Of a stretch of DNA of 64,000 nt, positions 5,463-32,154 are shown piece after piece. The stretch covers positions 63,798,001-63,862,000 of the forward strand of contig NC_043010.1 of the NCBI RefSeq assembly GCF_006345805.1, given 5' to 3'. Below the pieces are notes generated by a model. That model saw only the letters and a list, made by a program, of their open reading frames with translations. It was not told the origin of the DNA and did not search any database. The stretch's first letter is position 1. Every line of letters starts with the position of its first letter. The DNA comes from Octopus sinensis. Its lineage: Eukaryota. The position numbers and the translations under genes were made by a program.

Positions 5463-6119
5463 ATGGCTAACAAACAGCAGCTCAGGAACTCAATTAAAAT
5501 TAAACGATGTCGTGAGGATCTTGTGCAGGGGCTTGATGATGTGACTATAAAAAACATGGTTGATCATTTTTTATCTCAATCGTTTATCACCTCCGAGGAA
5601 AAGAATGTAATTCAAGCAAAAGAGACTGAACAAGAAAAAGCTCGGAAATTACTAGACGTTATTCACCGCAAAGTGGAAAGCCAGGATAAACAGAATAAGT
5701 CAAAATTATTCAATGGATTTGTGAAATGTCTAAGAGAACATAACCCGAGTTTAGCAACAACCGTGGAAAATGCTGATGACAGTGTGCCGAATGACGAAAG
5801 TGACAAAAGTAATATCCTTGAACGTGTTAAAAATATAGATTTGAATGAGAAAATGTTAAATCGTATTTTGATGTTTATAGGCTCTGGATGGGAATCTGTT
5901 GCTGCCGAATTAGATATTGATAGCGTAAAAATTAGTATTGCTAAGGCAAACAACCCACACAGCACACGAAACCAGATGTTTGAGGTATTTAATTTCTGGA
6001 GGCAAAGAGAAACCCTTGGACGTGGTGGATTAACAAAACTTATAAAAGCCATCAATTACTGTTCTGTTCATTGCAATTTCAACATGAATAAAATACTTGA
6101 ATGTATTGAAGACCCTTAA
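5463..6119 (+). CDS. CARD + death domain adaptor, copy A, 218 aa
   Basis: CARD motif (LVQGLD..MVDHFLSQ..EEK..IQAKET..EKARKLLD..F..CLREHNPSLA) followed by DD motif (LNRIL..IGSGWESVAAELDI..NP..NQMF..F..WRQ..LIKAI); one uninterrupted ORF. Confidence 0.9.
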   Translation: MANKQQLRNSIKIKRCREDLVQGLDDVTIKNMVDHFLSQSFITSEEKNVIQAKETEQEKARKLLDVIHRKVESQDKQNKSKLFNGFVKCLREHNPSLATTVENADDSVPNDESDKSNILERVKNIDLNEKMLNRILMFIGSGWESVAAELDIDSVKISIAKANNPHSTRNQMFEVFNFWRQRETLGRGGLTKLIKAINYCSVHCNFNMNKILECIEDP

Positions 6120-6709
6120 AAAGAAAAGAAGGAACAATAACGCGCAGTTTTTACAATGTTGTATGTTAATATATTAAAAAAAAATACAGTTTTTCCGATA
6201 CACTTTTTGATATGGACATAAAGAATCGACACTTCAAAAATGAAATTATCCTACACTAAACGGCATAATTCTTACGTTGTGGACTGATATTAAACATCGA
6301 CATGCGAAAAGCGAAATAATGCATTATCAACAGACATTACATTCCAATTATTGAATCCTTTTCAACGGACAGATTACTTTCGACTTTCACTTTGGAAAGT
6401 TGCCGTCTTAAAGTAACATCATGTCAAACGCGGAAGTATGCGACTCTTTCCTTCATTATTTTTATTGTCGACTACAAATCTTCACTTTTTGATATTTACA
6501 TAAATTTTTTTATCATAAATATATATATTTTTTGTTTTAGTTACGGATAGTATCAATCAGTATAATTTCATATGTATATATATACGCGCGCGCACACACA
6601 CATATATGGCGTAAAGAATACGGAGGTAAAGAATACACACACCACCCGTTTTCGGCGTAACCCTAATGCTAAACACCGGTTGTATATAATCTTTACTATA
6701 TATATATAT

Positions 6710-7040
6710 GGCTCAGTGGTTAGAACGTCGACCTTACGATCGTGAGGTTGTGAGCTCGAATCCCGGACCGGGCTGCGTGTTGTGTTCTTAAGCAAGACAC
6801 TTTATTTCACGTTTCTCCAGTTCACTCAGCCTTAGAAATGAGTTGCGACGTCTCTGGTGCCAAGCTGTATCGACCTTTGTCTTTCCCTTGGATAACACTG
6901 GTGGCGTGGAGAGGGGAATCCGGTATGCATGGGCGACTGCTGGTCTTCCATAAACAACCTTGCCCGGACTTGTGTCTAGGAGGGTAACTTTCTAGGTGCA
7001 ATCCCATGGTCATTCATGACCGAAGGGGGTCTTTACCCTT
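6710..7040 (+). mobile_element. tRNA-derived SINE
   Basis: A box GGCTCAGTGGTTAG and B-box-like GAGCTCGAATCC head, unique body, sits in a TA tract. Confidence 0.75.
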
Positions 7041-7051
7041 TATATATTTAT

Positions 7052-7260
7052 ATTACGGAGATGTACTTGCATAGCAAATGACCTGATCTGAGATCGTGTG
7101 CTGAAACAAAAACAATTGCAGCGCGGAAGGTGTTTGAAAACCGTTTAAAAAACACACAAAAACCGTTAGATTTACTTCAAAATTAAAATTTAATTTGCCA
7201 AAATATTTTCGTCGCTTTGGGACCGCGACCTGATCACTGACAAAATTCTGTGCTACAACA
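7052..7260 (-). repeat. Dispersed ~200 bp repeat carrying a hammerhead-like motif
   Basis: Homologous copies at ~18020-18160, 19502-19640 and 19642-19822. Confidence 0.75.
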
Positions 7261-8004
7261 AGCCATAAATTTATCAGAAATGAAGACTCTTATTTGGAGG
7301 CAACTAAGAAAACAACGAACTTCAACGCAACGATATATTGTTGATAATAAACTTGCTGAAATGGTAAGTGAATGTAATTGGAGGAATCTTAATTTTCAAA
7401 CACAAAATTAAGGATGGATTACTTTGTGTGTTTGTAGTGTATGATAAAGATAGAAAGGCGTGTTACGTGATGGATATTAATGATAAGGTGGTTCTGCAAC
7501 ATTAAAACCAACCTTTCAGCAATGAATTTCCTTCAGAATACAGACAAGTATATATGATGGATTTAACTGTGCTGGATAGCCACAGAAGGCGCCCTATCGA
7601 TTTTGATTTTCCCTATACCTTTCTTAAAACGTACATCTTTAATGGCATTTTCTAGAAATACGTATTCAATAGTGTTGATTGCGAATAAATTTATTGTTAA
7701 AAAAATTGTTAAGACCATTGTAAGATATAACGTATCTCTTGAAAATTTCGTTAAACGCATGATTTTAATAAAGTTCGGTGGGAAGCGCAAATGATTCTCC
7801 CAAGAAAACGAAACAACTTGTTTTTCATCTGCCATTTACCCATAATTGTAATGTTCACCATCTGAAAAATTTCAGTAAAAAATGCATTTTAAAGAAAGTT
7901 ATGGGAAACAAAGACGATTGTAGTTACGCCGACTATACTTAATTATCAGCATATTAAGGTTAATCATTTTCGTGGTTTAATCACCTTTATTATAGGAACC
8001 GTGT

Positions 8005-8525
8005 AAAGCAGCGAGTGAAACGCTTAGCGGTATCTCGTCTACCACTAGGTTCTGAGTTCAAATTCCGCCGAGGTCGACTTTGCCTTTCATCCTTTCGTGG
8101 TCGATAAATTAAATACCAGTTACGCACTGGGGTAGATGTAATCGACTTAATCCGTTTGTCCCCTCTGTGTTTAGCCCCCTCTGGGTAGTAAAGAAATAAG
8201 TATTTCGTCTACCGCTACGTTCTGAGTTCAAATTCCGCCGAGGTCGACTTTGCTTTTCATCCTTTCAGGATCGATTAAATAAGTACCAGTTAGGCACTGG
8301 GGTTGATATAATCGACTTTGTCTTTCCTTGTTTGTTCCCTCTGCCCCTTGTGGGTAGTAAAGAAATAGGTATTTCGTCTGCCGCTACGTTCTGAGTTCAA
8401 ATTCTGCCCAGTCGACTTTGTCCTTCATCCTTTCGAGGTCGATAAATGAAATACCAGTTATGCACTAGGGTCGATATAATCGACTCACGCAAAATTTCAG
8501 GCTCTGTTCCTATAGTAGAAAGTAT
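8005..8525 (+). mobile_element. SINE with three tandem ~175 bp internal units
   Basis: GTTCTGAGTTCAAATTC(C/T)GCC..GTCGACTTTG..TTCATCCTTTC occurs three times; same family at 39706 and 60170. Confidence 0.7.
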
Positions 8526-8894
8526 TATAGGAACTGTGTATTAGACATCCCGGTCAGGGATTAAAAGGCCATTAAAAAGAATCTGCGAAAGTTAGGGTAA
8601 ATGAATGCTGTCCCGCGTAGATGAGTACCTGAATGTATACACTAGTTTAGCATTTCCTCGATATATTTTGATATATGTGTAATGGATAGCTCAAAGTGAT
8701 ATATTTCATATCCATCTGATACAGCCTTTAAAAAAAAATATTTCGTTGTCATACATTCTAACAGCCAAAAGTCTTTTAATAACACTAACTGGGGATTGTT
8801 TCTGTTTCAGTATCTGTCGTATCTTCATTCTTGTTTTCAAAAGCACTTTATCGGATTAATGCTTACTTTCACACTCGGCCACGAAAAAAAAAAA

Positions 8895-9830
8895 AGGTGT
8901 TTTAAACGAATATGAAAACAAAAATTTGCGCCAACGACCCGGGGGGGTGGGGACAGGATTTTCGGAAAATTCACAAAATCCGATTTTTTGCCTTATAACT
9001 TTTAGGAAAATGGATATCTTTTCATGAAATTTTATGTAGATACCTTTCAAACGACATAGATTACGATTATAAAGAAATTTGTGGGGAAAATTTTTTAGGA
9101 GGGAGTGGGGAGATGATTTTCGAAAAGAAATTCTAAGTTATTTTTTAGCTTTAGTGTAATAGAAAAAAGTTTGAAAAAAAATTGGGTAAATCTTTAGATT
9201 TATTTATTTTTCGTTTGAGAAAAAGGTTTTAAAAAAGATCCCAACGGTAGGGATGTGCTAAATTGCCCTTAACATTTTTCCATAGTGAAACTATATTCAA
9301 CACCGTATTTATGAATTTGTTTCTCCCATCATAATACATGGGATCTTTTTAAAAACCTTTTTCTATTACTCAAACGAAAAATGAATGAATCTAATTTTTT
9401 TTAAAACTTCCATTACGCTCAAGCGTAAAAATATTTTAGAACTTTCTCTTCGAAAGTCCTCTGACCACCCACTCGGAAAAAAAAAAACTTTCCCCTACAA
9501 ATTTTTTTATAATCTTAATCAATGCCATTTGAAAGGTATTTATATAAAATTTCATTAAAAGATCCAATTTCCTAAAAGTTATGAGGTAAAAAATCGGATC
9601 GTGTGAATTTTCCGAAAGTCCACCCCCACTACCTCGGAAAAAAAATTTTTCTCCACAAATTTCTTCATACTGTTTGAAATGTATTTGTATAAAAATTTCA
9701 ATCAAGGATATCAATTTTCCTGAATGTTATGAGGGAAAAAATTCGGATCTTGTGAATTTTCTGAAAGTCCTTTCACCCCCCCTCCAATTCGTTGGCACAA
9801 ATTTTTGTTCTCATATTCCTTTAATTCACA
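8895..9830. mobile_element. Foldback/MITE-like element with long imperfect inverted arms
   Basis: Left end AATATGAAAACAAAAATTTGCGCCAACG is complementary to right end CGTTGGCACAAATTTTTGTTCTCATATT; internal arms also mirror; related pieces at ~35735, 54620-55580 and 61820. Confidence 0.65.
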
Positions 9831-9883
9831 TTTTTTTTTTACTTATTGCGATTTTTTTTGTTTGGTGGTCGGGTGTTAAGCAT

Positions 9884-10125
9884 ATGCCGTAGCGGTTGAG
9901 CGCGGGCTACTAACCCCAAGATTCCGAGTTCGATTCCAGGCAGTGACCTGAATAATAACGATAATAATAACAACACCGAAAAATACGTTAGGAATGAGAA
10001 CCCAGGTTCGAAATTTCCCCAAAACACCCGATGAAGGCTGGAGGGTATATCAGCCGAAACGTTGTGTTAACAACAAACAAGATGAGGACAAATATCCGTC
10101 AAATGTAAATAATATAAATAATGTA
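9884..10125 (+). mobile_element. tRNA-headed SINE containing a minimal hammerhead-like motif
   Basis: A box TAGCGGTTGAG, B box GAGTTCGATTCC, AT-rich tail; motif at 10023-10068. Confidence 0.65.
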
Positions 10126-10737
10126 ATTTTTATCGCTCTATTGTAATTGATTTCTGGGATTGAGACACAGGTTCTCAAACTGATAACCCCACTGATCAAC
10201 AAATCGATTTTGGCTTCTGCATTGTAATTGGAAAGTTTAATAATGTTAAACTATCTAAATTATGTTAGACTTGACAATCTGTTCGCCATCCTCACGGGAA
10301 ATATTTTATTGAAAGGCACTCGTGGTACGACTTGGAATGTTGCAATTTGCTATTGAATTGTGAAAAGTTAAGAAGGAATGTTGCACTTATGAGGAGATCA
10401 GGATGTGGTGAGCGGACAGAATAAGGTCAGTGAGATGAAGAGGAACTGGCATTGATTGTATTGCCGTAGGATAGCATCCGTCTTGCCAGTTAGCAGATCA
10501 AGGAAGTGTTATTGTAAAAGACGCGCCCACGCACAGCTGCGATGGGCATGCGTTCAAGGGAGACCACTTTAATTTCTGGTAATAACATCGCTTGGCACTG
10601 AGAATAGCATTCAGTAATGTTGGCGCGACTTCTATACAAAGAGGAACAACTTTTTCGAAAATAGTCATCTCTGTTTCAGCAGAGTTATATTTTTAAACTT
10701 ATTTATGGACGTAGAAAACTAATAAACTCAATAGACA

Positions 10738-11097
10738 TAGGCGTAGGAGTGGCTGTGTGGTAAGTAACTTTGCTTACGAACCACATGGTTCAGGGTTCAG
10801 TCCCACTGCGTGGCACCTTGGGCAAGTATCTTCTACTATAGCCTCGGGTCAACCAAAGCCTTGTGAGTGGATTTGGTAGACGGAAACTGAAAGAAGCCTG
10901 TCGTATATATATGTATATATGTATGTGTGTGTGTGTGTGTTTACGTCCCTGTAACTTAGCAGTTCGGCAAAAGAGACTGATAGAATAAGTACTAGGCTTA
11001 CTAAGAATAAGTCCTGGGGTCGATTTGCTCGACTAAAGGCGGTGCTCCAGCATGGCCACAGTCAAATGACTGAAACAAGTAAAAGAGTAAAGAGAGA
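10738..11097 (+). mobile_element. tRNA-derived SINE
   Basis: GGAGTGGCTGTGTGGTAAG...GGTTCAGTCCC head, central TA/TG microsatellite, GTAAAAGA-type tail; related reverse copies at 30762 and 50587. Confidence 0.75.
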
Positions 11098-12899
11098 CAT
11101 ATCTGTTCTGTCAGAATAGATCATTTCATTACCATTCCTTTACCGACAATTTTAATGAACACATGATTAGCAAATATAATTGTCATTTAATGTCCACTTT
11201 TCCATACTTGCATGAGTTGAATGGTGTTTATTCAAGGCAAACATTTCTTATACTTAGATGTCTTCCCTGTATCTAACCCTTACCTGTTTCCAAGCAAGGT
11301 AACATCTCCTTATGGAATAGAATTGTTCTCACAGAATATTGGAAGGTAATATTTCCTTATTTTGCAGAATACTGGAAATGATTGACACTGCTTCTTTGAC
11401 AGTGACAATCATTTACAATTATTGTACGATGTCAAGACAAGGGGACACACACACACATATGATGGGGATCTTTTAGTTTCTGTCTATCAAATCCACTTAC
11501 AAGGCTTTGGTCTGTTAGGGGCCTAAGTTGTCACACTCTGGGATTGAACCCAAAACCATGTGGTTGGGAATTAAACTTCTTATCACAGAGCCATATCAAA
11601 AGTTTTATGCAAAGTAGAATAGTATATATGGTATATAATTAGGCATTGGGTCACGACTAAAAATGTGAAGACTTGGCGTAACTTAAGCAAGAACTCAAGC
11701 AAATTTTACTGTGAATTTGTTGTTATAGGTAGATTCTACTGTAATATAGAATTAATTTTTGTATTATTCTATTTATTGTACTCACTAATTATGTACAACT
11801 TTTTTTATAACCTATTTTCAAATTTCTAATTATTAATTAATAATTAAAAAATGTTTTTAAAATGCAAAAAAATATTTCGAGTTATTTTTTTTAATAATAG
11901 AGGTAACAAATAATAACAAACGGAAGTAATAACTTGCAATAAATTTTTTAGTATTAATAAAAGCTAATATTTTCTAAATCTAAATATTTTATTTGAAATT
12001 TTATCCTTAGCTGCAATATTTTGAGTAAAAATTTTCTTGTTCTATACTTTTCCAAGTGTATTAACTTGTCCTGTACTTTTCCAGGTTTATAATCTTAAGA
12101 ATATTATTTCTCTTGCTTGCATTTTGCCATATAATTATTATTGAGTAAGGTGGTGAGCAGCCAAAATGCTTAGTGGAATTTCGTCTGTCATTACATTCTC
12201 AGTTTAATTTACGCCGAGGTTGACTGTCCCTTTCATCACTTTGGGGGTTACAAAAATAAGTACCAGTTGAGTACTGGGTTTGATGGAATTGACTATCTCC
12301 CTCCCCCAAATTTCAAGCCTTGTGCCTCTAACTGAAAGGATTATTATTATTGAGTGAGAGAACAGTGCATGCCATCAAAGTGACACTGAGGTATAGATGT
12401 ATGAAGCCCAGAATACCCATCATGGCTACCCGTTTGATAAGCGTACACGAGGCACATGCATCACAACCATTTGTGCATGACATGGTGATCTCATATCAAG
12501 ATAAACAGCGCATGATCTTGCAGGTGGGGCCCAGTTAGAATTTTCTTCAGGTCGAATATCCCATTCTATTCAAAAGGTTCCTGAATGAGGCTTGTTTAAG
12601 GATGTTGAACAAAGAACCCAAGTTTCCAATGGTAAATTATTTACACTCCAAAGAATTCCTCTCAACACATGGCTATGATGCTCCCTCTCTACTTCTGCTC
12701 GTGATCAGAGATGCACATATTGTCAGGGACTTGCTCAACTGGTTAAGGTCAAACAACTGACAAGAAAATCTGTAGTACTGAGCAGAATATTTGCTGTAGC
12801 CCATCTTTTATACCAAGACAAAACATGTACATGATAACACTTTCAATATCAATTAAGATCAGAAGCCAGGAGAGCCAGTGCTAGGTATTCCATCATCAT

Positions 12900-13860
12900 C
12901 ATCATCATTATTCAGTAGTCTTATTTTTATCATGTACTTTCACTGCACTACTGAGTGCTGCTCTGTGTGCCTTGGGTATGTGCTGTGGTTTGTTGTGGTG
13001 TTTTTAGTTTCATTGTATTGAAAGTGTTTTACATTGGATGTGTGTGGTGCCTACTGGTGCTGTTTTTTGTGTTACATACACTTGTAAGTCCTGGTGTCTG
13101 GGTTATGCATTTGTCTGAATGTTTTTTTGTTTTTTTATCATACCTAATGTGCCTTTACCATCATTTTTCTTTTGTCATTTCATAGTTTTGGCATAGCTTC
13201 CAGTGTATGTAGGTCCCAACTCTGTCATGTCTGTGAATATATTCTTTCTTAGCCAGAACTGGGCAGCCTGAGACGATATGATTTATTGCTTCTTCCCCAT
13301 CTGAGCCTCTCAGCCATTGTTGGGATTTTGCTTTGTCTATTTATCTTTAGTTCAACCCAATATTTGCCATTGTTTTATGATTTGCTGTTGTCCCAGTTTT
13401 AGTTTGAATTTCAGTTATTTTACAGCTTTTGTTGTTTCTTCTTTTTCTTCATAGTTTTTAGGTACTATGACTTTTTATTTGTATTTTTCAACTTTCTTAA
13501 AGACAGAAAACAATTTTTTTTTTTGCTTGTGTTTTGTGACAATTTGTATTAGTTTTCCTTGCTTCTGAAGTAGGTGTTTCTATAGTCTTATGGTGGTAAC
13601 TTTATAATAGTTTTCTAGCTGTATAAGGCCTTTACCACTTTCAGTACATTGCATATACAGGCTTTCTATTTCAGATTTTGGGTGGTGCATCCTAAATTTG
13701 GTCATATTTTTTGTTTTCCTGTCTATTTTGATTAGTTCATTTAGAGTCCAGTTAAGAATATTGTAGCTGTAACTTATAACTGGGACAGCTACAGTGTTGA
13801 TATCTATTATCTTGTTTTTCTCTTTGAGCTCTGTTTTCAATATTAATCTAACTTTATTAT
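12900..13860 (-). mobile_element. Degenerate non-LTR retrotransposon fragment (R4/Dong-like)
   Basis: ORF 13580-13840 (AVPVISYSYNILNWT..IDRKT..MHHPKS..LY..GKGL) is homologous to the post-RT region of the neighbouring element; simple-repeat tail near 12890. Confidence 0.7.
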
Positions 13861-13861
13861 T

Positions 13862-14365
13862 ATTATATTACAGGTCATGCTTCAAAAAATCTGCAAAGAA
13901 TTCTTGCAGTTCCAAGCAATGCTGAATTTTGTAGCTGTTCTACCTTCACACTTACACCATTCTCAGCCATGTTGGTAGTTGAGTGCTGATACTTCCAAGG
14001 GCACCAGTTACTATTGGTATCATGTCTACTCTCTTCATTGACCACAGACTTTGTATTTCCCACTTCAAATCATCATAGTTGTTTATTTTTTCTTCTTCTT
14101 TCTCTTTGATCCTGTAGTCACCAGGGCATGTTTTGTCGATTATCATACATGTTCTTTCTTTTTTCATTCGCCACAACAATGTCTGGTTTCTGATGTCTGG
14201 ACAGATGACCACACTGGATCATTTCATCCCACAGGAATTTGCAATTTTTGGTGACTCCTGGAGTTTGTTCATACCACGTCTTGATTCTTTGTTGGCCATG
14301 ACTTCCACAAAGTTCCCAATGGATCATTCTTGGCACATTGTCATGGCGGCTTTTGTACTTGCATT
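13862..14365 (-). mobile_element. Non-LTR retrotransposon 3' fragment with restriction-like endonuclease
   Basis: RMIHWELC..W..LWD..KPDIVV..IID..P...EK..Y.DL..W..IPIVTGALG..LQNSALLGTARIL spread across shifted frames; (TAA)n tail at ~13855. Confidence 0.8.
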
Positions 14366-14369
14366 GTGC

Positions 14370-16750
14370 TATTATTATTATTATTATTATTTTTTAAAAA
14401 TAAAATATAGTCCATTGTCTTCTGCTGAGCCAGGGTCATCCCTTGACCCTAGGGTCACAGCAGGTCCTCATCTCATGGAGAGTACACGGCGTAAAATGTA
14501 TGCGGAACCTAGCAACACTATTTTCTGAAGTTCTCCTACATTAACACTGCAAGGGAGTTTATGGAGCTGCTTATCAAGGCCCTTTTTAATTAGCCCTAAT
14601 GCTCCAATCACCACTGGTGCTGTGCTGCTTTTCATTCCCCACATCTTGGTCACTTCTATTTCTAGGTCTTTGTACTTAAATAACTTCTCAACTTCTCTAA
14701 TGGACACATTTCTCTCTGATGGTACTGTCACATCTATCATTAAGCATTTCTTATTCTTCCCATCTTTGATGATTATGTCCGGCCTGTTTGCCTTGATTTC
14801 TTTATTGGTGTTCATTGGCATGTCCCAGAGTAGTGTTACATCATCTTTTCTCGTCACAGTTTCAGGTTTATGCTGGTACCATCTTTCTCAAGTTGGAAGC
14901 TGGTAGTGTTTACATATATATTGCGCTACTCTATCATGTCTATGAATATATTCAGTTTTTGCAAGCGCTGTGCATCCAGTTAAGCTGTGGTCCACTGTTT
15001 CATCCTGCTCATTGGGTCAGTTCCATCGTTCATTATTTTGTTGTAGTAAGCCCTGGTTGCCAAGCTTTGATCTTGTGCTGCTATGATAAACCCTTCAGTC
15101 CTGAGCTCTTCATCCATACATGAGTGTCTCGTTTTTCTATGTCTGGTTTTTTCACTCTACATGGGTATCGGCCATGCATTGGTTTTTCTAGCCATTCTTA
15201 TTTGCCCTTCTTCTGGGCTTGTTTTTTCATCTCTTCCTTAACTCTTTTAGCAAACTGGGTTACTTTCTCACTCGCCTTCACCCTAGATCCCTCCATCTTC
15301 AGTTGTTTCTTAAGCTGTACAGATCCTTTGTATACCGAGTATAGCTTCTTTACTTTATCATGCTGGTGCACAAGCTTCATGAGAGGATCTTTTGACAGCT
15401 CAAGATATGTATTTAATCCTACAGTGGTGGTTTTGTAAGATAATTCTAATTGAGTTAGTCCTCTTCCTCCCATGCTTCTCGGTAAATAAATCCTGTTCAC
15501 GGCCGCTTTTGGGTGGTTCATTCGAGCCATGGTCAGTAGTTTTCTGGTCTTGGAGTCTAGCTTCTTTAATTCGCTCATTTGCCAGTTGATTATGTTGAAA
15601 CTGTAAGCTACGATTGGTACTGCAAGAGTGTTAATGGCTTCTATTTTGTTTGCAGCATTGAGTTCAGTCTTTGTTACTAACCGTATTCTCTTGTAGTACT
15701 CTTTTCTAATCTTCTCTTTCATTGCTGAATGTTTTATGCTGTTACTTTTGTCTTTGCCAAGGCATTTATATGCTTTCTCCTGGTCCAGTGCTCGGATCCT
15801 TGCTTATGTATCTATGTGGATATCCACAGAAGATGCCAGTTTGTCTCTTATGGAAGTGGCTTTCGCGTATTTCTCCAGTCCAAGCTGCATCCTGATATCA
15901 TCACTGAACTTTTTAACCGTAGCAAGTAGACCTTCTTGTTGTTTGTCATTTTTTTAGTACATTTTCACATCATCCATGCAGAACAGATGACTTCCTTTTT
16001 TATTGATCTTGTATCCATACCCGGTTTTGTTGAGCTTGGTACTTAGTGGTGCCAGTGCCAAGCAGAATATTAAGGGTGACAGCGAGTCCCCTTGGAAGAT
16101 ACCACTTTTGATTTTGATTGGTCTGCTTGTTATTGATCCACTGGAATGGTTCAGCATCAACGTAGTTTCCCATGTATTCATGCTGTGTTTCATAAACTTG
16201 ATGAGAGTTGGGGATACTTTGTATACTTCCATCACTTTCAGAATCCATGAATGAAGTACACCATCAAACGCCTCTTTATAGTTGATCCATGTGCTCAGGT
16301 TCGTTTTCCTCATTTTGCAGTCTTCAGGGATCATTTTGTTAATCAGCAATTGGTCCTTCCATCCGTAGATCCCTCTTCGACAACCTTTTTGTTCTGGTGG
16401 TAGCAGGTTGTTTTCTTCTAAGAATGTGTATGTTGTTTCAGTGATTACAGATGATAATATTTAATACATTGTTGGTGGAGGACAGGTGATTGGTCTATAG
16501 TTCTCTCGGTTTTCTGTGTCATTTGTATTTGGTATTAGGTATGTCACTCCTTGTGTCAACCAGTCTGGGCTATTTTCTGGGTTTTTCATGACTTCTCTGA
16601 TGACATATCTCCATGTATATCAACTAGTTGTTTGATCCAAATGTTTGGTACTTGATCTATTCCCAGTGACTTCCAGTTGCTGGCCTTTATCAGGGCCAGG
16701 GTGACCTCCTCCTTTTGAATATCTTCCCATTCCTGTACTTGGTTTTTGTC
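14370..16750 (-). mobile_element. R4/Dong-like LINE: reverse transcriptase plus restriction-like endonuclease, degenerate
   Basis: RT motifs GIFQGDSLSPLIFCLAL and HLFCMDD (15954-16349); endonuclease LLWD..NRPDIII..MIDV.VP..EK..KY.DL..W..PVVIGALG (14468-14857); (TAA)n tail at 14370-14390. Confidence 0.88.
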
Positions 16751-17684: not shown

Positions 17685-17975
17685 CGTGACCGACCAGGCT
17701 ATCAGATGTTGCTACACATCACTGGTCACAATGCGCTTTGCATTGTTTTAGCCTCCAAATGACGCCACCCTGCTGGATAAGCGAGCAGGGCAACAGAAGG
17801 AAGAGTGAGAGAAAGTTGCGGCGAAAGAGTACAGCAGGGATCGCCCCCACCCCTGATGGAGCCTTGTGGAACTTTAGGTGTTTTCGCTCAATAAACACTC
17901 ACAACGCCTGGTCTAGGAATCGAAATCATGATCCTATGACCACGAGTTCGTTGCCCTAATCACTGGGCCATTGTG
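17685..17975 (-). mobile_element. tRNA-derived SINE
   Basis: Minus strand begins TGGCCCAGTGATTAGGGCA...TTTCGATTCC (A and B boxes). Confidence 0.65.
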
Positions 17976-18210
17976 CATTTATATATATATATGTACGTAT
18001 GTATGTATGTGTGTGTGATGCAGCACGGACTTTGTCAGTGAACAGGTCGCGGATTTTAGCGACGAATATATTTTGACAAATTAAACTTAAATGTTGAAGT
18101 GAATCAAACGGCTTTTGTGTGTTTCTTAAATGGCTTATAAACACCTTCCACGCTGCAATTGTTATATATATATGTATGTATATATATATATATATATATG
18201 TATGTATATT

Positions 18211-19922: not shown

Positions 19923-20316
19923 TCTTTATATATAAAGTGAGGTTGTGTGTCTGTCTCCTACGATTTAGATTCCTAACTACTCCCACATTTTGCGGTGCAG
20001 TTTAACCAAACCGGGTATCTTATAGTCGTGATTCATATCGAGACCGTCTGGGTATTAGCGCGCGTCTACGATGAGTCTACGATTTAAAAAAAATTTACCA
20101 TCAATTTTTCCCATTTTTAATCCATTTTTGACATATATAAGGGAAGTAACTCTCTAAAATTTATTATTAAATCTCAGAACGTAAAAAGCTACAGTAACAC
20201 CCCTCCCCCTTTGTGGTTAGCCATATTGAGATGGCTATTATACGTTTACATCTCTAAAAAATGCTTATATAATTATTTCCCTTACAAACCCGAGCAACGC
20301 CGGGCGATACTGCTAG
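19923..20316 (+). mobile_element. Non-autonomous Helitron
   Basis: 5' TC after A, subterminal hairpin CCCG-AGCAACGC-CGGG, 3' CTAG followed by T; second copy at 42805-43321. Confidence 0.8.
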
Positions 20317-20326
20317 TAATATATAT

Positions 20327-20361
<35 letters not shown>

Positions 20362-20647
20362 GTATATGTATGTATATGTATATATGTATGTATGTATATG
20401 TATATGTATATATGTATATTTATATATGTGTATGTATATGTATGTATATGTATATATAGTATGTATATGTATATATATGTATGTATATATGTTGTATGTA
20501 TATATATGTATGTATATGTATATGTATATATGTATGTATATGTATATATGTATGTATATATATGTATGTTATGTATATATATGTATGTATATATATATAT
20601 ATTTATGTATATATATGTATGTATATATATATGTATATGTATATATG

Positions 20648-20679
<32 letters not shown>

Positions 20680-20701
20680 TGTATATATATGATAATGTAT
20701 G

Positions 20702-20752
<51 letters not shown>

Positions 20753-20788
20753 GTATAGTATATATATATGTATGTATATATATATATG

Positions 20789-20826
<38 letters not shown>

Positions 20827-21065
20827 TATGTATATATATATAATATGTATGTATATGTATGTATATATATGTATATATGTATTATATATATGTATGTATA
20901 TATATATATGTATATATATATGTATAGTATGTATATGTATGTATATGTATAATATATGTATGTATGTATATATGTATATGTATATATAATGTATGTATAT
21001 ATATAGTATGTATGTATAATATGTATGTATATGTATATATGTATATGTATGTATATGTATATATG

Positions 21066-21154
<89 letters not shown>

Positions 21155-21216
21155 GTATTATATGTATATGTATGTATGTATATATATGTATGTATGTATA
21201 TATATGTATATATATG

Positions 21217-21276
<60 letters not shown>

Positions 21277-22218
21277 TATGTATATATATGTATGTATATA
21301 TATATATGTATATATATATATGTATATATATATATGTATATATATATATGTATATATATGTATATGTATATATGTATGTATGTATATATGTATGTATGTA
21401 TATATATGTATGTATGTATATGTATGTATATATATATGTATGTATATATATGTATAAATATAATATATGTATATATATGTATGTATATATATATATTATG
21501 TATATTATATATGTATATATGTATTGTATATATGTATATGTATGTATATGTATGTATATGTATGTATATGTATGTATGTATATGTATGTATATATATATA
21601 TGTATGTATATATATGTATATATATTGTATATATATATATATATATATGTATATTATGATATATGTAATGTATTATGTTGTATATATATATATGTATATA
21701 TATATATGTATGTATATATATGTAATTATGTATAATATATTTATGTATATAATTTTGTGGTATGTATATATATATATATGTTATGTATATGTATATATAT
21801 GTATGTATATGTTATATATATGTATGTATATGTATATATATGTATTAATATATGTTATATATGTATGTATATATATATATATGTATGTATAGTATAATTG
21901 TTATGTATAATATGTATATGTATGTATGTATATGTATATAATGTATGTATATGTATATATATGTATGTATATGTATATATATGTATGTAATATATGTATG
22001 TATATGTATATATATATATTGTATATATATATATATGTATATATATATATGTTATATATATATATGTTATATATATATGTATGTATATATATGTTATGTA
22101 TTATATATATATAGTTATGTAATATATATATATGTATGTATGTGTAATATATATGTATGTATATGTATATAAAGTATGTTATAAATATGTATGTATATGT
22201 AGTATATGTATGTATATT

Positions 22219-22251
<33 letters not shown>

Positions 22252-25200
22252 GTATATATATGTATGTATATATATGTATATATATATGTTATATATATAT
22301 ATATGTATGTATATATATTGTATATATATATAATATATGTATGTATATATATATATGGTGTATATATATAATATTGTATATGTAATATATATATATATAT
22401 GTATGTTATATATATATAGTATGTATGTATATATATATTATGTATGTATATATATATATATGTTGTATATATTATATATGTGTGTATATATATTATAGTG
22501 TGTATATATATATATATGTATGTATATATATATATGTATGTATTATATATATATATGTATATGTATATATATATATATGTATGTATATATATATATATGT
22601 GTTATATATATATATATGTGTATATATATTATATGGGTGTATATATATATATATGTATGTATTATATATATATGTATGTATATATATTATTGTATGTATA
22701 TTATATATGTATGTATATATATATATATGTATGTATATATATATATATGTATGTATATTATATATATGTATGTATATATATATATATGTATATATATTTG
22801 TATGTATGTATATATGTATGTATGTATATATATATGTATGTATGTAATATAATATATGATATGTATGTATATATATATATAATGTATGTATATATATATG
22901 TATATGTATTATATATATTATGTATATATATATGTATGTATATATATATATGTATGTATATATATATATGTATGTATATATATGTAATGTTTATATATAT
23001 ATATGTAGTATATTATATATATGTATATCGTATATATATATGTATGTATATAAATATATATGTATGTATATATATATGTATGTATGTATATATATATGTA
23101 TGTGTATATATATATATGTATGTATATATATATATATGTATATATATATTGTATATATGTATGTATATGTATGTATATATATATATGTATATGTATATAT
23201 ATGTATATGTATATGTAATATATGTATATGTATGTATGTATATATATGTATATGTATATGTATATTATATATATGTATATGTGTGTATATGTATGTATAT
23301 ATATATATATGTATATGTATGTTTAATATGGTATGTATATATATTATATATGTATGTATGTAATATGTATGTTATGTATAGTATATATGTATATGTATAT
23401 GTATATATATATTATATGTATATGTATGTATTATATATATATGTATATGTATGTATATATATATATATGTATATGTATGTATATATATATATATGTATAT
23501 GTATGTATATATTAATATATGTATATGTATGTATATATATGTATAGGTATATATGTATATATATATATATGTATATGTATGTATATATATATATATGTAT
23601 GTATGTATATATATATATATGTATATGTAATTATATATAATATATGTATATGTATGTATATATTGTATATAATATGTATATGTATGTATATATATATATA
23701 TGTATATGTAGGTATATATCTATTATGTATAATATATCTATATACATATATATATATGTATTATATATCTATATATGTATATGGTATGTATATATATGTA
23801 TATGTATGTATTATATGTAATATGTATGTATATATATGTATAATTGTATGTATATATATGTATATATGTATATATATATATATGTATATGTATGTATATA
23901 TCTATATGTATATGTATGTATATAATATATGTATATGGTATGTATATAGATATAATATTATATGTATGTATGTATATGTATAATGTATATGTATATGTAT
24001 ATATATGTATATGTATATGTATGTATATATAATATATGTATATTGTATGTATATATATGTATATGTATGTATATAATATATATGTATGTAATATATATAT
24101 AATGTATATATGTATATATATGTATAGTAATGTATAATATATGTATATGTATTCATATATATATATAGTGTATGTATATATAGATAGTATATGTATAATG
24201 TATGTATATATCTATATGATGTTATATGTATGGTATATATATATATATATGTATGTATATATATATATATGTATTGATATGTATGTATATATATATAGTA
24301 TATATGTAATGTAATATATGTATATGTAATGTATATATATGTATATATTATATGTATATATATATGTTATTTATATATATATGTAATGTATGTATATATT
24401 TATATGTATTGTATGTATATATATATGTATATGTATGTATATATGTTATATGTATGTTATGTATAATGTATATTATGTAGGTATATATGTATATGTATGT
24501 ATATATGTATATGTATGTATATATATGTATATGTATGTATCTATATGGTATATGTATGGTATATATATATATTGTATATGTAGTATATATATATGTATAT
24601 GTAATGTTATATATATCTATGTATAGGTATGTATATATATTATATATGTATAATGTATTATATCTATATGTATGTATGTATATATGTATGTATATATATT
24701 ATATGTATATGTATGTATTATATATATATGTATGGTATATATATATATATGTTATGTCTGTATATATATATATATATATGTTATATGTATGTATATTATA
24801 TATATGTTATATGGTATGTATATATATATATATATGTATATGTATGTATAATCTATATTATATGTGTTATATGTATGTATAGATATAATTTTATGTATGT
24901 ATATATATATGTATGTATATATATATATATGTATATGTATGTATATATATATATATGGATATGTATGTATATATGTATATATATTATATATGTTATTTTA
25001 TATATATATATATGTATAATTATTGTATATATGTATATATGTATATGTCTTATATATATATATAAAATGTATATGTATTTTATGTTTATATATGTATATG
25101 TATGTATATTATATGATTATGGATATATATATATATGTATATTTATTTATATATATGTCTTATGTATGTATATATATGTATATGTTATGTATATATATAT

Positions 25201-26167
25201 GTATATGTATGTATATATATTATATGTATATGTATATATATATATGTATATGTATGTATATATATATATATATTATATGTATGTATATATATATATTTAT
25301 ATGTATGTATATATCTATATATATCTATGTTATGTATATATATGTATATGTATATGTATGTATATATATATGTATATGTAATTATGTATATATATATATG
25401 TATATGTATGTCTATTATATGTATATGTATGTATATATCTAATATGTATATGTATGTATATATATATATGATGTATATGTATGTATATATATGTAATATG
25501 TATGTATATATATGTATATGTATGTATATAATATGTATATGTATATATATATGTATATGTAATGTATATATGTATATGTATGTGTATGTATATATATATG
25601 TATAGTATGTATATATGTATATGTATGTATATATGTATATTAATGTGTATGTAATGTATGTATATGTATGTATATATGTATATGTGATGTATATATGTTA
25701 TAGTATGTATATATGTATATGTATGTATATATATATATGTATATGTATGTATATATATTGTATATGTATGTATATATATATTGTATATGTATGTATATAT
25801 ATATGTATAGTTGTATATATATATTATATGTATGTGGTATATGTATGTATATATATATTATGTATATGTATGTTATATATTGTAATGTTGTATATATATA
25901 TATATGTATATGTATGTATATATATATATATATATGTATATGTATGTATATATATATATGTATATGTCTGTATATATATATCTATATGTATATGTATGTA
26001 TATATATATATATATTGTATGTTATATATATATTATGTATATGTATATGTATGTATATATATATATATTGTATATGTATGTATATATCTATACATCGGAT
26101 ACTGTATGTATATATATATATATATTTCTAGTATTATGTCTATATATATATACTGTATAATATGTCT
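20317..26167. repeat. ~5.85 kb (TA)n/(TATG)n compound microsatellite running into an assembly gap
   Basis: Direct inspection; 100 N at 26168-26267. Confidence 0.97.
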
Positions 26168-26267
26168 NNNNNNNNNNNNNNNNNNNNNNNNNNNNNNNNN
26201 NNNNNNNNNNNNNNNNNNNNNNNNNNNNNNNNNNNNNNNNNNNNNNNNNNNNNNNNNNNNNNNNNNN
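26168..26267. other. Scaffold gap (100 N)
   Basis: Run of N. Confidence 1.
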
Positions 26268-27290
26268 TGCGGGATACAAAGATGAAGCGTTGGAACAAAC
26301 AGTTAAAAGCTGCCGAATATTCACTCTATGGCGAGTCCTAGCCTCGTGTTGCTTAGTTTTTCCTTGGGGTTGGCCAGATTGGAGCAATCTCAAGGTTAAT
26401 CAGCTAAAATTGCGAGGATGATCTGGTTCTTGACTGAGGATAGACAGCTTCGAATGATGACCCATCCTTGTTATTTTTATATTTTATATCGTCTGTCTGG
26501 ATGTTTTGTTGTCCCTTTTTGTATCACCTGGTTGTCCGGATGTTTTGCGTTCTTGTCCCATTTTGTATTATATATATATATGCAAACCTACATACATCAT
26601 GCATGTACATACCTACGTATGTATATACACATGCATATATGGGTACAAGATGTCAAAAGAACATGAACAACATGAGAAACGAGAACATGAATAAACAAAA
26701 ACATGGAAAACGAACTTTTTTTTGAACTACGAAAGAAACAAATAGAGAAACTACACAGGCAACCTAAAGAACAATCCCTTCATCAGTGCCCTCTGTTTTA
26801 TCTACTCCGCATTTCGGACGTTTAGGGCAAGATGCATCTTCATCAAAACAGTCGTTCCTGCAAAGCAAATTAAATAAAATTTGGGATTTGCGGAGGGTTA
26901 ACGTAACAAAAACAGGACAGTAAGAACAAAGCAGCAAAAGCAAACGGTAAGGACTGTTTAGCCATAATGAAGTGAAGGGGTGAACACTGGAGAAACGAGC
27001 TTTGACAGGAGACAGGCAAAAATGTGTGTTGTCTCTTGTAGCGTAAGGAGGAGAAAGCAAGATAGCCGCTGGTCACGTGTGAGCAACGAGAGAGTCAAGG
27101 AGGAAGAGTGAGGGAGAGATAGAGAACGGTGAAGGGGAGGAGGAGAAATAGAGACAGGGTAGGAGAGAAAGAAAGAATAGAGGCAGATAGTAATATAAGT
27201 GCCGCATCAGAATTATTAAGATAAAACTTACTTGGAAATGGATGCATGGCGTTCGATCATATAATATAAAAATATAAATTATATATGTAT

Positions 27291-28349
27291 TGTTACGGAC
27301 CACCTGCCGTCGTCCGGTCGATCAGCGAATGTTCGCCACGGAAACTCGGAGAGAGAGACAACAACAACTACAACAGCAGCCGCAAGAAGAGATACAGAGG
27401 CAATCGAGAGAGACACAAAGAAGGCAATTGGCTCACATTTAACGTACTAGTTTATATGACTATTAATTATTACATCAAATATATATCAGATACATTTAAA
27501 GAGGACACGTCGAATTAAACAACTCAATACATCATACAGGTATACCACAGATCAAAGCATTTAAACTGTCCGGAGACAACAGTTCTGTTTCAAATCACAT
27601 TAACGTTACAGTTCAAAGGACATTAAAAGCATATACAGTTCAATGTTCGTTACACAGTTCTTTTCAACAACTCTGTACACAATGTCTTTACACAGTTCAC
27701 ATTGTTCTTTTTTTACTGTCTCATTTCTTTTACATTTCAATACATCGATTCTTTTTCCTTCTTTTTCTTCACATATCAATACACAATTCACGTACCTTAG
27801 TTCCTACTATAATAGCCAATGTCTCATACTGTACCCCATCTCTCTTAGCACTGCTAAATCCAACTTGCTAACCGCTTGCCTTGAATTCCAAATCCTCACC
27901 CCTAAATCCAACCGCTCGCCTTGACTACCAAATACCGACTGCCCAAAAACCTCTTGCTCTGTCACTACCCGCAATCTCTCTTAGCTCTGTCGCAATCACT
28001 CTCTCTCTCTCTTAGCTCTGCAATACTCTCTGCCTGTCTTCCTCTGCCCCTCATTCTCTCTCACTCTACTGTCATCTCTCATGACAGCTCCCAGATTCCT
28101 TAATCTGTCTTTCTCAGCCCTTCATCCTCTCACTCTACTGTATCTCTCATGACAAGCCCCCAGATTCCTTAATCTGTCTTTTTCGGCACTCAATATTTCT
28201 CTCACTGTCTCTCACACACTGAACTCTAATTCACCTGACGGGGTCGGGAAGTTTCCCCAGAGCTAATTAATCAACCCGCATCTGGCAGAACAATGGATTC
28301 ATTGCCAAATGTAGGTCGCCGTCAACGGTCCTCAAATTGAACCACAACA
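27291..28349. mobile_element. Possible solo LTR (duplicate at 47116-48174)
   Basis: TGTT...AACA termini, ~1.06 kb, embedded in a TA tract; no clean target-site duplication seen. Confidence 0.35.
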
Positions 28350-29279
28350 ATATATATATGTGCATACACACAGACATTTATTGGAATATAATGCGTTCGT
28401 ATATATATATATACACACACAGAGACATTTATTGGAATATAATGCGTTTGTATATATATAGTCACACACATACACACACATTTATTAGAATATAATGCGT
28501 CTGTATATATGATACATATATAATATAAAACCACATTATAAATAGAAATCTCAAATCGGGAGAAAAGATGGAAAAAGAGAAACTTTCTAGCTTAAAGTAA
28601 CATCATGTCTTTCATTGCCATCCACTGCCACTTCGTCTGTTGTTTTACTATTCTCTGCCTACAGCATGACCGAAACCAAGCGTTTTATTTCATAAGATGA
28701 CAATCTGTCCGTCATTCCCAATAGAAACATTATAGTGAAAGGCACTCGTGGTGCGACTTGCAATGTTGCAATTCGATATTGAAAGTCGAAACGTGAGGAG
28801 GGAATGTTGCACTTGTGAGGAGAGAAGGATTTGGTGAGCGGACAGGATTTGGAGGAGGAACAGGCATTGGTTGCATTGCCGCAAGGCAGCGTAAGCCTTG
28901 CTTGTTCGCAGATTGAGGAAGTGTTTTTGTAGAAGATGCATACACGCACGCACACACGCGCGCGGTATATATCGGTTCAAGGGAGATCACTTTCAGATCT
29001 GAGAATAACATTGTTTGGGAATGAGGTTAAAAAAATGTCCAATTACGTCGGTACTTATATACAAAGAGGAACAACTTTTTTGAAAATAATTATCTCTGTT
29101 TCAGCAGAGTTATATTCTCTAACTTCATTTTATGTTCATTTGGCTTTACTGTAGAAATTGTTGCGAAAATCCCTATATTTTTCCACGTTACATATCTGGT
29201 TTAATGAAATTTCGTTGGACAAGGTGGACCATCACCACACCCCACTTCCGTTTTTTTTTAAATATATAATCAAAACCTA

Positions 29280-30265
29280 GGCAGAGGTAAAGAAGACGCA
29301 GAACATTTAAAAAAATTCCTTGCCAAAGAGATGCAGATGAAACCTGATGAATGGGAAACCAAACTGAAAGAAAGATGGTTCTCTATCCTTCAGCAGATTG
29401 AATTTCAAGAACAATACTCCGAGTTGTTAATTTTGTGCCCGTTCTTAATTAGCACACCAGCACAAAATGCTAATGATGAGCGTGTCTTTTCGAGGATGAA
29501 TGTTCAGTGGACTGATGAACGAAATACGTTGGGTGTGGCTACTGTAGAAGCTATCTTACAATGCACATGGAACCTTAACGGTCAATATAAAGCATTTTAT
29601 AGGCATGTGTTAGAAAACAAGGACCTGTTAACAAAAGTGAACTATAACTGAAGGTAAAGGTTCAAGTTTAATTCTCATGCGGTCTGTTAAGAAAATTTTG
29701 CATGTAAGTTTATCAGTTTTGTTTCTTTGCACGTTCTCCATATGAAACACAACTTTTTAGTCTCTTTCTGTGTTTGGATTAAATAATAATTTTCTAATTT
29801 CTTTCCTTTGCATTTTTCTATTGTCTCTATTGAATAAGAATTTTGCAATGATTTCACTTTCTCAGTATTTCTCTTAGATATCTTTATTGCCGGTATTAAA
29901 TAATAATATTCAAATGCTTTCATACAAAAAGATTTTTTATTCATATTGTCTCTATTTGTCATTGAATAAAAAAAATTACAATGATTTCGATCTAACAGAA
30001 TTTTTTTGCCTATTTCTTTATTTCTGTATTAAAGAAATATTTTCAAATTATTTCACTTTAACAGAATTTTTTTAAAGCTTGTATTAAATGATTTTGAAAT
30101 GATTTTACTTTTGTTTTTCTCATAACCCATTAAAATAATTGCTTTATGTTTTTAACCCTTGTCTCTACTTTTATATAATATATTGTTCTGGGTGTGTCGG
30201 CATGCATAAATTTATATATAGAGAGCTATTTAAAAATGTTCCATATTTCTAATCTGGCAACCCTA
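29280..30265 (+). mobile_element. hAT transposon 3' remnant (dimerisation domain and right TIR)
   Basis: ORF 29331-29651 W...YSEL..L..LISTPAQNANDERVFSRMN..WTDERN.L; element ends TCTGGCAACCCTA (reverse complement of TAGGGTTGCCAGA). Confidence 0.8.
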
Positions 30266-30761
30266 GTTAAGTGTGGGGTTTTTGTTGCGTTGCAACTAGA
30301 AAACGATTAGAAAATATCAATTTGTTCATATTGAACAAAAGGGATGTACTCTTTCCAGTGTGTGTCAGTGCTTTGTGTCTATAAATCAGAATGTTGGATC
30401 AGCGCCAGCGTCAGAGCGTCGGATATGTTATGCAGTATTTCATCCGACTCTCTTTGGTCTGTGTTGAATCTCGTCAATATAAACCTTACGTTTCATCTCT
30501 CCAGAGGCGATGAAATAAAATATCAGTCAAATACGTGGTTCCGTATAAGCGATTCCTCCCGCCACAGTTTTCAGATAGTGCGCATATATTAAAGACAGTT
30601 ATGTTATATAATTGCATATAACTGAATGTTACAGTGAATTGATACGTTATCTATTTTATAGATTTAATAAAAGTTAATTATATTTTAATAATATTTATTT
30701 AGGAACACAAAAGTTTGAAAAAAAATCGTTTTTAAAGAGAAGAAAAGGGTCATTTAATTTG

Positions 30762-31155
30762 TACTCTCTTACTCTTCTACTTGTTTCAGTCATTTGACTG
30801 CGATCATGCTGGAGCACCACCTTTAGTCGAATAAATCGACCCAGGACTTATTCTTTGTAAGCCTAGTACTTATTCTATTAGTCACTTTTTGCTGAACCGC
30901 TAAGTTACGGGGACGTTAACACACCAGCATCGGTTATCGAGCGGTGGTGGGAGGACAAACACACACAAACAACAAACTCATACATATACGACGGGCTTCT
31001 TTCAGTTTCCGTCTACCAAATCCCCTCACAAGGCTTTGATAAGCCCAAGGCTAAAGTAGAAGACACTTGCCCAAGGTGCCACACTGTGGGACTGAACCCA
31101 GAACCATGTGGTTGGGAAGCAGGCTTTTTGCCACACAACCACTCCTGCACCTATG
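30762..31155 (-). mobile_element. tRNA-derived SINE upstream of copy B
   Basis: Reverse complement of the family at 10738. Confidence 0.75.
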
Positions 31156-31497
31156 TAATTTAGAAATTCACTCAGAAACTAAAAGTTTTAGCTTCTCTAA
31201 AATCGATTAAACTGAAAGTCGGAATGCATGGACATAATTATGTTTATTTGAATTAACTTTAATACACGTTTATACTTTGGGCTTAACGACAGTTCTTGCG
31301 TTATAACACCGAGCTGAGCACAAGTTGTATGATACGGAAATGAAATTTATACGCGAAAGTGACCCACATTACAGCATTTTCGAGCGTCAACACATTCAGT
31401 GTGCATGCGCAGACGTCGCTGCATAAAGAAGTTGAACGGCAAACTTTTTTAGTGTATCCACGTAGAAAACTGACTGTCTAATCATACTCAGAGCACG

Positions 31498-32154
31498 ATG
31501 GCTAACAAACAGCAGCTCAGGAACTCAATTAAAATTCAGAAATGTCAGGTGGTACTTGTGGACGGGCTTGATGGTGTGACAGTAACAAAGATTGTTGATC
31601 ATTTTTTATCTCAATTAGTTATCAATGACGAGGAAAAGAATGCAATTCAAGCAAAAGAGACTGAACAAGAAAAAGCTCGGAAATTACTAGACGTTATTCG
31701 CCCCAAAGTGAAAAGCCAGGATAAACAGAATAAGTCAGAATTATTCAATGGATTTGTGGAATGTCTAAGAGAACATAACCCGAGTTTAGCAACAGCCGTG
31801 GAAATTGCTGATGACAGTGTGCCGAATGACGAACTTGACATAGATAATATCCTTGAACGTGTTAAAAATATAGATTTGAATGAGAAAATGTTAAATCGTA
31901 TTTTGATGCGTATGGGCTCTGGATGGGAATCTGTTGCTTCTGAATTAGGTATAGAGAGCATAAAAATTGATAATGTTAGGCAAGACAACCCATACTGCAC
32001 ACATAACCAGAAGTTTGAGGCATTTAATTCCTGGAGAAAAAAACAAGCCCATGGGCGTGGTGCATTAAAAAAACTTATAAAAGCCATCTATTACTGTTCT
32101 GTTAATTGCAATGTAAACATGAATAAAATACTTGAATGTATTGAAGACCCTTAA
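31498..32154 (+). CDS. CARD + death domain adaptor, copy B, 218 aa
   Basis: Colinear without gaps with copy A (about 75% amino-acid identity by hand count); intact ORF. Confidence 0.9.
   Translation: MANKQQLRNSIKIQKCQVVLVDGLDGVTVTKIVDHFLSQLVINDEEKNAIQAKETEQEKARKLLDVIRPKVKSQDKQNKSELFNGFVECLREHNPSLATAVEIADDSVPNDELDIDNILERVKNIDLNEKMLNRILMRMGSGWESVASELGIESIKIDNVRQDNPYCTHNQKFEAFNSWRKKQAHGRGALKKLIKAIYYCSVNCNVNMNKILECIEDP

Follow-up and report, generated by a model that had tools for sequence, protein, structure and literature searches.

Tandem CRADD-like genes in Octopus sinensis: excess amino-acid divergence between paralogs with signs of selection and gene conversion

Introduction

Adaptor proteins built of a CARD and a death domain (DD) connect a caspase that carries a CARD with a DD oligomer upstream of it. 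We analysed a 64,000-nucleotide stretch of the Octopus sinensis genome (assembly GCF_006345805.1, contig NC_043010.1, positions 63,798,001 to 63,862,000 of the forward strand), hereafter the window, in which CARD–DD genes, each consisting of a single open reading frame (ORF), form a tandem array comprising copies A, B, C, and D, the CARD-only copy E, and two fragments. We concentrated on copies A and B, whose coding sequences differ much more than their flanks do.

In the accessible part of PMC11463336, lophotrochozoan CRADD is treated as a single, conserved activator of the CARD type, subject to purifying selection (cross-phylum dN/dS 0.91). It is proposed there as the sole CARD activator of molluscs, with caspase-2 or caspase-Y as its partner, APAF-1 and PIDD being reported absent, and the available portion of the supplement indicates that caspase-2 and caspase-Y exist in octopus. 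According to the portion of PMC9389742 at hand, the octopus genome lacks Cradd and squid has Pidd, so the two papers, as far as available, conflict on PIDD in cephalopods. A protein named CRADD is listed in the skin mucus of O. vulgaris in the available part of PMC11431876. Our search, which left most of the subscription literature outside, found no paper on an expansion of cephalopod CRADD or on its selection.

Divergence of Copies A and B

Copy A occupies positions 5463..6119 of the forward strand as an intact single-exon ORF of 218 amino acids (CARD at residues 13-103, DD at residues 130-200), and copy B (31498..32154, forward strand) is an intact single-exon gene for a CARD and DD protein, also of 218 amino acids, with 75% identity to A. 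Of the 218 residues, 54 differ between the proteins, as do 74 of 654 coding bases (11.3%) between the genes, while purely synonymous differences are limited to four codons: 28 (ACT/ACA), 152 (ATT/ATA), 180 (AGG/AGA), and 186 (GGA/GGG). These figures agree exactly with an earlier note made from the sequence alone, which had also put the divergence of the flanks at a few percent, and rightly so: 6 of 280 bases differ in the upstream flank (5183..5462, forward strand), which is common to B (31218-31497) and C, and the downstream flank (6120..6571, forward strand), again common to B and C, shows 9 substitutions in 381 bases and one homopolymer indel. Against the 2.1-2.4% of the flanks, coding divergence is about five times higher (Fisher p=1.8e-11). 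The three independent neutral yardsticks for this pair, which besides the flanks include a distal block (17/452) and four-fold sites in codons with the same prefix (2/50), lie at 2-5%, to be compared with a dN of about 0.14. Neither gene contains a stop or a frameshift, and both reading frames are intact in two species.

The explanation that we favour, with moderate confidence, is that A and B are tandem CRADD-like paralogs in which selection for different binding surfaces acts against homogenising gene conversion.

It is next to impossible that A and B represent alleles or an error-laden consensus, and for A versus B this reading has already been refuted. Letters of both types occur in public contigs of all four runs examined (X1, X5, X7, and X10). 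Contigs with the B-type CARD N-terminus were found in the three large runs X5, X7, and X10 of the four, with 24-25 differences, which matches expectation, and at the DD level both B-type letters and A-type contigs are present in 4/4 runs. Both types are also encoded by O. vulgaris (A orthologue P0001, 95% identical; B orthologue P0002, 96% identical), where they share one chromosome and have accession numbers near each other; moreover, errors would not leave flanks and reading frames spared. An artefact would be favoured by about 4 kb common to B and C without a difference and adjoining an assembly gap, so that the arrangement of B and C may be partly a product of assembly.

Codon Models and Simulations

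Diversifying selection is supported for copies A, B, C, and F (the last located outside the window), with omega (dN/dS) above 1 when recombination is allowed for. For this family, model M0 gave an omega of 1.91 (p=0.0017) on one tree and 2.14 (p=0.0007) on three segment trees, M2a fitted better than M1a (p=2e-5 and 2e-4), and omega rose to 2.66 (p=0.0002) with double hits allowed; leaving out the doubtful copy C gave 1.96 (p=0.003). For the A-B pair with double hits allowed, omega was 3.2 (p=0.015). The distant pairs A-E, B-E, and A-D and one C-F fit, which stalled at omega=1.00 from the optimiser start, were left out. The positive selection proposed in the earlier note is thereby upheld: the ratio, which the note had allowed might not exceed 1 once conversion donors are taken into account, exceeds it with the donors C and F included, with per-segment trees, and with double hits allowed.

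The size of the excess is more modest than the raw counts suggest. Neutral simulations matched to 50-58 amino-acid differences give about 13 synonymous-only codons, and four or fewer appeared in 2/425 runs; with omega set to 0.75, none of 396 runs was as extreme. The raw 54:4 exaggerates because neutral evolution already gives about 54:13 and because two changes fall in each of 16 codons, against 7.7 such codons expected, and at least four of the 16 force a synonymous step; consequently, pairwise omega varies between 1.5 and 3.2 by model, and 54:4 is not a dN/dS. The amino-acid excess between A and B thus lies beyond the neutral expectation, as the earlier note had maintained, but at about 2-3-fold over neutral it is not extreme, as that note had called it.

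Relaxed constraint, under which redundant copies drift at an omega of about 1 and the excess consists of noise and multi-nucleotide mutation, is very unlikely and largely refuted. It would agree with the non-significance of pairwise counting, with the weak family constraint indicated by an omega of 0.72-0.77 between copies D and H, with the published cross-phylum CRADD ratio cited above, with the excess of double hits, and with the broken or truncated state of C, E, and two fragments. However, the family rejects omega=1 at p<=0.003 in every model, the double-hit one included, both sets of simulations rarely or never reproduce the pattern, and coding divergence of five times that of the flanks is combined with A and B frames intact in two species.

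Location of the Differences on the Protein Fold

As predicted by AlphaFold from a 28-sequence alignment, A consists of two helical bundles joined by a loose linker (mean pLDDT 86.5, pTM 0.50). The A/B differences are clustered along the protein, as permutations show both for the variance among windows (p=0.0005) and for the lengths of gaps (p=0.009): CARD helices 1-3 (A codons 9-51, 5487..5615, forward strand) are unlike B at 16 of 43 residues and DD helices 3-4 at 20 of 36, with few differences elsewhere (6 of 51 residues in CARD helices 4-6), the helices being predicted ones. The earlier note had placed the clusters in these same regions, which is correct, and had counted charge swaps among the changes: charge is altered in 25 of the 54, but the only three true reversals (E72K, K81E, and K88E) lie outside both clusters. 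Its statement that core W, L, and F positions are kept compares with 24 of the 29 W/L/F positions of A kept and five changed (F41V, F138R, F178S, L185H, and F206V). Positions that are hydrophobic in distant homologues change less than others (5/43 vs 47/164, p=0.03), and the variable sites are not random but clustered and, by this sequence proxy, mostly outside the hydrophobic core.

According to the available text of PMC4977500, an 18-residue peptide of RAIDD helix 3 blocks PIDDosome assembly. Its equivalent here, an interval taken from the published peptide and not chosen from our data, covers A codons 151-168 (5913..5966, forward strand; 31948-32001 in B) and differs between the copies at 11 of 18 residues (p=0.0007; 0.002 when the DD alone is considered). 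The earlier note's idea of interaction surfaces is partly supported: the densest cluster falls on the equivalent of the partner-binding helix of human RAIDD.

Two variants of the copy A DD were seen in the run contigs: a 12-base in-frame deletion near window position 5921 in X5, and V175I (5985 G>A), present in X7 and X5 and not in X1 or X10. They represent allelic variation in the helix-3/4 region. A compensated one-base slip at codons 160-163 was considered as the origin of three differences and rejected, plain substitutions being equally short given the codons of the outgroup F.

Gene Conversion and Its Interplay with Selection

Three segments of the gene favour three different trees. The 27 informative sites switch their pattern 5 times, and copy C, over 71 sites, passes from the state of A to that of B or back 7 times (0/20000 permutations in both cases). 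Ten sites at which A and B agree here and the O. vulgaris pair is unlike all fall in residues 53-99 (0/100000 permutations), the comparison with O. vulgaris having been made on proteins. This segment (A codons 53-99, 5619..5759, forward strand) is the putative conversion tract marked by species-shared sites; its homogenisation within the O. sinensis genome points to gene conversion, and since the species-shared sites follow the B state in some cases and the A state in others, exchange went both ways. The gene thus shows concerted evolution, with blocks in which within-species paralogs are closer than orthologues and a topology shift along its length. Several observed tracts measure 80-150 bases or longer, and short ones (codons 43-44 and 166-167) occur too. 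The share of gene conversion in shaping the pattern (flanks, residues 53-99, and the mosaic copy C) was absent from the earlier note, as was the younger age of the O. vulgaris split relative to A/B. The divergence-peak pattern of converting duplicates, e.g., opsins, is reviewed in PMC3924837, as its available part indicates.

The linker and the first DD helix (residues 113-137) of A, B, and C resemble the F-type of O. bimaculoides, and those of F (L004) its A-type; judging from this likeness, one lineage seems to have undergone a reciprocal exchange.

Import of the distinct segments of B by conversion from a more diverged paralog missing from the assembly is most improbable. The assembly gap (26168-26267) lies directly upstream of the B segment, mosaicism is pervasive, and B agrees with F or E in a few of its states. 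Nevertheless, a genome search shows no further close copy (11 protein and 9 DNA matches), the known donors account for 4 of 24 B-derived residues, and an old donor would carry many silent differences, which are scarce.

Conversion may also have acted as a filter, an explanation that we consider unlikely though tenable. A and B would then be older than one would judge from their flanks and would have diverged under weak constraint, frequent and very short tracts having erased the silent differences and selection having rejected those tracts that overwrote paralog-specific residues, so that omega above 1 would reflect selection keeping differences and not an adaptive burst. In simulations with a target pattern of 2.3% flank divergence, at least 45 amino-acid differences, and at most 6 silent codon differences, tracts with a mean of 10 bases and 90-100% rejection gave the pattern in 8-58% of the 12 runs made at each setting. 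Such a filter also agrees with the confinement of silent differences to dense blocks, with a D-H dS twice that of A-F, and with the short shared tracts at codons 43-44 and 166-167, and its mechanism is known for opsin and other duplicates (PMC3924837, available part). However, 30-base tracts gave the pattern in 0-3/12 runs and tracts of 100 or 300 bases in 0-1/25 runs per setting, which does not suit the longer tracts observed, and the distal non-coding blocks differ by 4-5% both for B-C and for A-B, fitting a recent duplication. Since short and long tracts are both present and the A-F dS is half the D-H dS, the filter stays viable. It still demands strong selection on dozens of residues, and thus is unlike the favoured explanation in timing more than in kind.

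A number of points weigh against selection for different binding surfaces as the favoured explanation has it. The codon models were our own scripts on four DNA sequences (A, B, C, and F), with the recombined segments picked by eye. For the A-B pair, Nei-Gojobori counting gives a non-significant omega of 1.5 (p=0.21), and maximum likelihood over six frequency models a borderline one of 2.0-2.2 (p=0.028-0.063). Neither gene half is significant alone (p=0.33 and 0.065), nor are the two dense blocks (dS 0.15, omega 1.66, p=0.19), and single selected sites are without resolution, the model putting 91% of sites in one class. All four synonymous-only codons fall in dense blocks (4/61 vs 0/103), matching an old-island model. 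The D-H dS is 0.30-0.33 and the A-F dS 0.16-0.17, the two pairs having probably been duplicated together; as the former is twice the latter, conversion may have lowered dS. The B-derived residues 43, 44, 183, and 185 are common to F and may be conversion imports. R147, which is important in human RAIDD, corresponds to I159 in A and N159 in B, and burial was judged by hydrophobicity in homologues, not on coordinates.

Orthologues and Timing

The nearest proteins to the array come from O. vulgaris and O. bimaculoides. The difference between A and B is kept between the O. vulgaris orthologues as well at 47 of the 54 positions; polarised by the A-type protein of O. bimaculoides, 24 changes are derived in B, 9 in A, and 14 are ambiguous (p=0.014). 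For the DD at the DNA level, with F as an outgroup, B/C have 14 nonsynonymous and 3 synonymous changes and A has 12 and 1; since these counts are more even, the asymmetry towards the B lineage is suggestive only. The preprint 10.1101/2023.05.16.540928, in its available part, dates the split of O. vulgaris and O. sinensis to 2.5 million years (My) and that of O. bimaculoides to 34 My. The B type was not found among O. bimaculoides records in homolog searches, and the A/B split therefore likely falls between 34 and 2.5 My. Judging from the orthologous proteins, both copies are older than the O. vulgaris split, and most of their differences were likely fixed before it.

Family Identity

In both A and B, Pfam detects CARD (48 bits) and Death (29-35 bits) over the cut-offs and no other domain. 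The best solved relative by phmmer is RAIDD (2O71/2OF5, E=8e-7; next DD matches E>=0.015), and the top row of Foldseek is human RAIDD (TM 0.84 on target, E=0.012). The orthologues from O. vulgaris and O. bimaculoides carry the name CRADD in their sources. Copy A is the array member nearest to gastropod CRADD-like proteins, and the limpet CARD-DD protein P0023 matches only A, B, D, and H in the genome, with A best. In a tree of 31 proteins, built without a non-CRADD outgroup, the array sits in a cephalopod group with members from Argonauta, the branch parting cephalopods from gastropod/deuterostome CRADD being weak (78/91). A repeat homolog search with a nine-sequence profile returned the same 6 proteins among 2971 candidates, longer and shorter forms being left out. 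By its architecture the array would work like CRADD, and, as the P0023 match and the tree suggest, it probably represents the octopus counterpart of CRADD. As to possible partners, a search with PF10461 (PIDD) gave 0 matches, its control search being blank too, and a CARD search of the genome gave 26 matches, none of which, nor any of seven loci inspected, was identified as a partner.

Organisation of the Array

Copy C (51323..51978, forward strand) is a mosaic with a 1-base frameshift at codon 163 (~51809), which may be real or an assembly error: its codons 14-41 are A-like, codons 49-64 hold residues of its own, and its DD is B-like. B-type DD contigs in runs X1 and X10, checked with regard to this frameshift, are in frame, and B-type DD depth is about twice the A-type DD depth in runs X7 and X10. 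The 8.2-kb segment around B (26268..34428, forward strand) is duplicated around C at 46093-54239; B and C segments show no difference over ~4 kb upstream and 37 differences within 250 bases of the CARD. The identical stretch (window 26168-30500 vs 46093-50300) begins directly after a 100-N gap and may reflect a very recent duplication, conversion, or assembly copying. In the O. sinensis record P0004, residues 1-137 of C (window 51323-51733) are fused to the DD of F (L004), ~19 kb away. The junction lacks a plain GT-AG splice, so the record reflects either an artefact of annotation or the vestige of a haplotype with a C-F hybrid. The exact A or B sequence was not found in the protein collection searched.

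Copy D (3819..4502, reverse strand) is an older CARD-DD paralog with 40% identity to A, located head-to-head with it. Copy E (38229..38780, forward strand) has a CARD but lacks a DD, in the place of which a 24-bp repeat encoding a charged, helix-like octapeptide occurs in 9.4 copies; copy E has a database protein match (P0015) and is a possible dominant-negative decoy. A broken E-like CARD fragment lies at 40882..41050 and a CARD N-terminal fragment of 37 codons at 45349..45459, both on the forward strand. Outside the window, H and F, also head-to-head, lie at window-equivalent 67269 and 70410, G at ~121480 window-equivalent, and two distant relatives on contig C8. One chromosome arm carries at least 8 CARD-start copies plus fragments. 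Start-to-start spacing in the head-to-head pairs is 960 bases for D-A (window 4502-5463) and 3140 bases for H-F; omega is ~0.75 for D-H and ~1.7 for A-F.

Of 194 aligned residues, 24 distinguish copy G (G000:C14:63919454-63920053, L009) from P0035, its counterpart in O. vulgaris, most densely near CARD helices 2-3, and G appears to be another fast-evolving copy in the array. CARD exons also form a second cluster in tandem, consisting of two near-identical pairs, on G000:C24 at ~4.96-5.03 Mb (L037-L040). The remaining features of the window are a repeat downstream of A (6618-6700), an AT-rich TA/CA-type microsatellite of ~5.8 kb (20314-26165) ending at the assembly gap, and fragments at ~13500-16500, 41600-42450, and 60300-63700, which we take to be LINE- and transposon-like from their motifs.

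Discussion

Under the favoured explanation, duplication of a CARD-DD adaptor would have given A and B, selection would favour different binding surfaces, and gene conversion would keep homogenising the flanks and the unselected parts, with most of the change presumably falling on the B lineage ahead of the O. vulgaris split. By analogy with described adaptors, a CARD caspase (caspase-2 or caspase-Y) would bind through the CARD, and through its DD the adaptor would attach to a death-domain oligomer upstream. With their surfaces altered, A and B would then differ in upstream or in downstream partners, or would evade an inhibitor. Pathogen antagonism or paralog-specific pairing, which the earlier note had suggested, may underlie the selection. 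A much more doubtful suggestion is that the single caspase-activating adaptor has become a hypervariable and recombining array, with the fast-evolving A, B, C, F, and G serving as decoys or direct sensors of pathogen death-fold inhibitors and their slower head-to-head neighbours (D beside A, H beside F) as signalling partners, like paired immune receptors.

Selection opposing conversion is already known from other gene families. What the octopus locus adds is a divergent CRADD-like array with paralogs pushed apart on surfaces used in death-fold assembly. It contrasts with the conserved single CRADD of PMC11463336 and the octopus absence reported in PMC9389742, as the accessible parts of both present them. 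A and B, two natural adaptors of 75% identity whose segments have been swapped naturally, offer a handle for finding the upstream DD partner and for studying the evolution of death-fold specificity.

Among the closest described systems is human RAIDD/CRADD, the PIDDosome adaptor (PDB 2O71, 2OF5), which likewise has an N-terminal CARD and a C-terminal DD and nothing else; octopus differs from it by a tandem array of single-ORF paralogs, omega above 1, and I or N at the R147 equivalent. Lophotrochozoan CRADD, in the available account of PMC11463336, is linked to this array by the gastropod match of P0023, but octopus has at least 8 copies, with an omega of about 2 for A/B/C/F, and not one conserved gene. 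Innate-immune families of molluscs under positive selection (RLRs in PMC8998645 and oyster immune genes in PMC4346834, going by their accessible parts) show a similar lineage-specific tandem expansion of death-fold signalling genes. These are mostly receptors and inhibitors, and our searches turned up no cephalopod array of CARD-DD adaptors. In opsins and colobine RNases, as the available part of PMC3924837 presents them, coding divergence is also far over that of non-coding sequence, and orthologue-shared and species-shared sites also fall in separate blocks. However, in those cases a few selected sites guard one exon, whereas in octopus about 47 residues in two domains are involved, with omega above 1.

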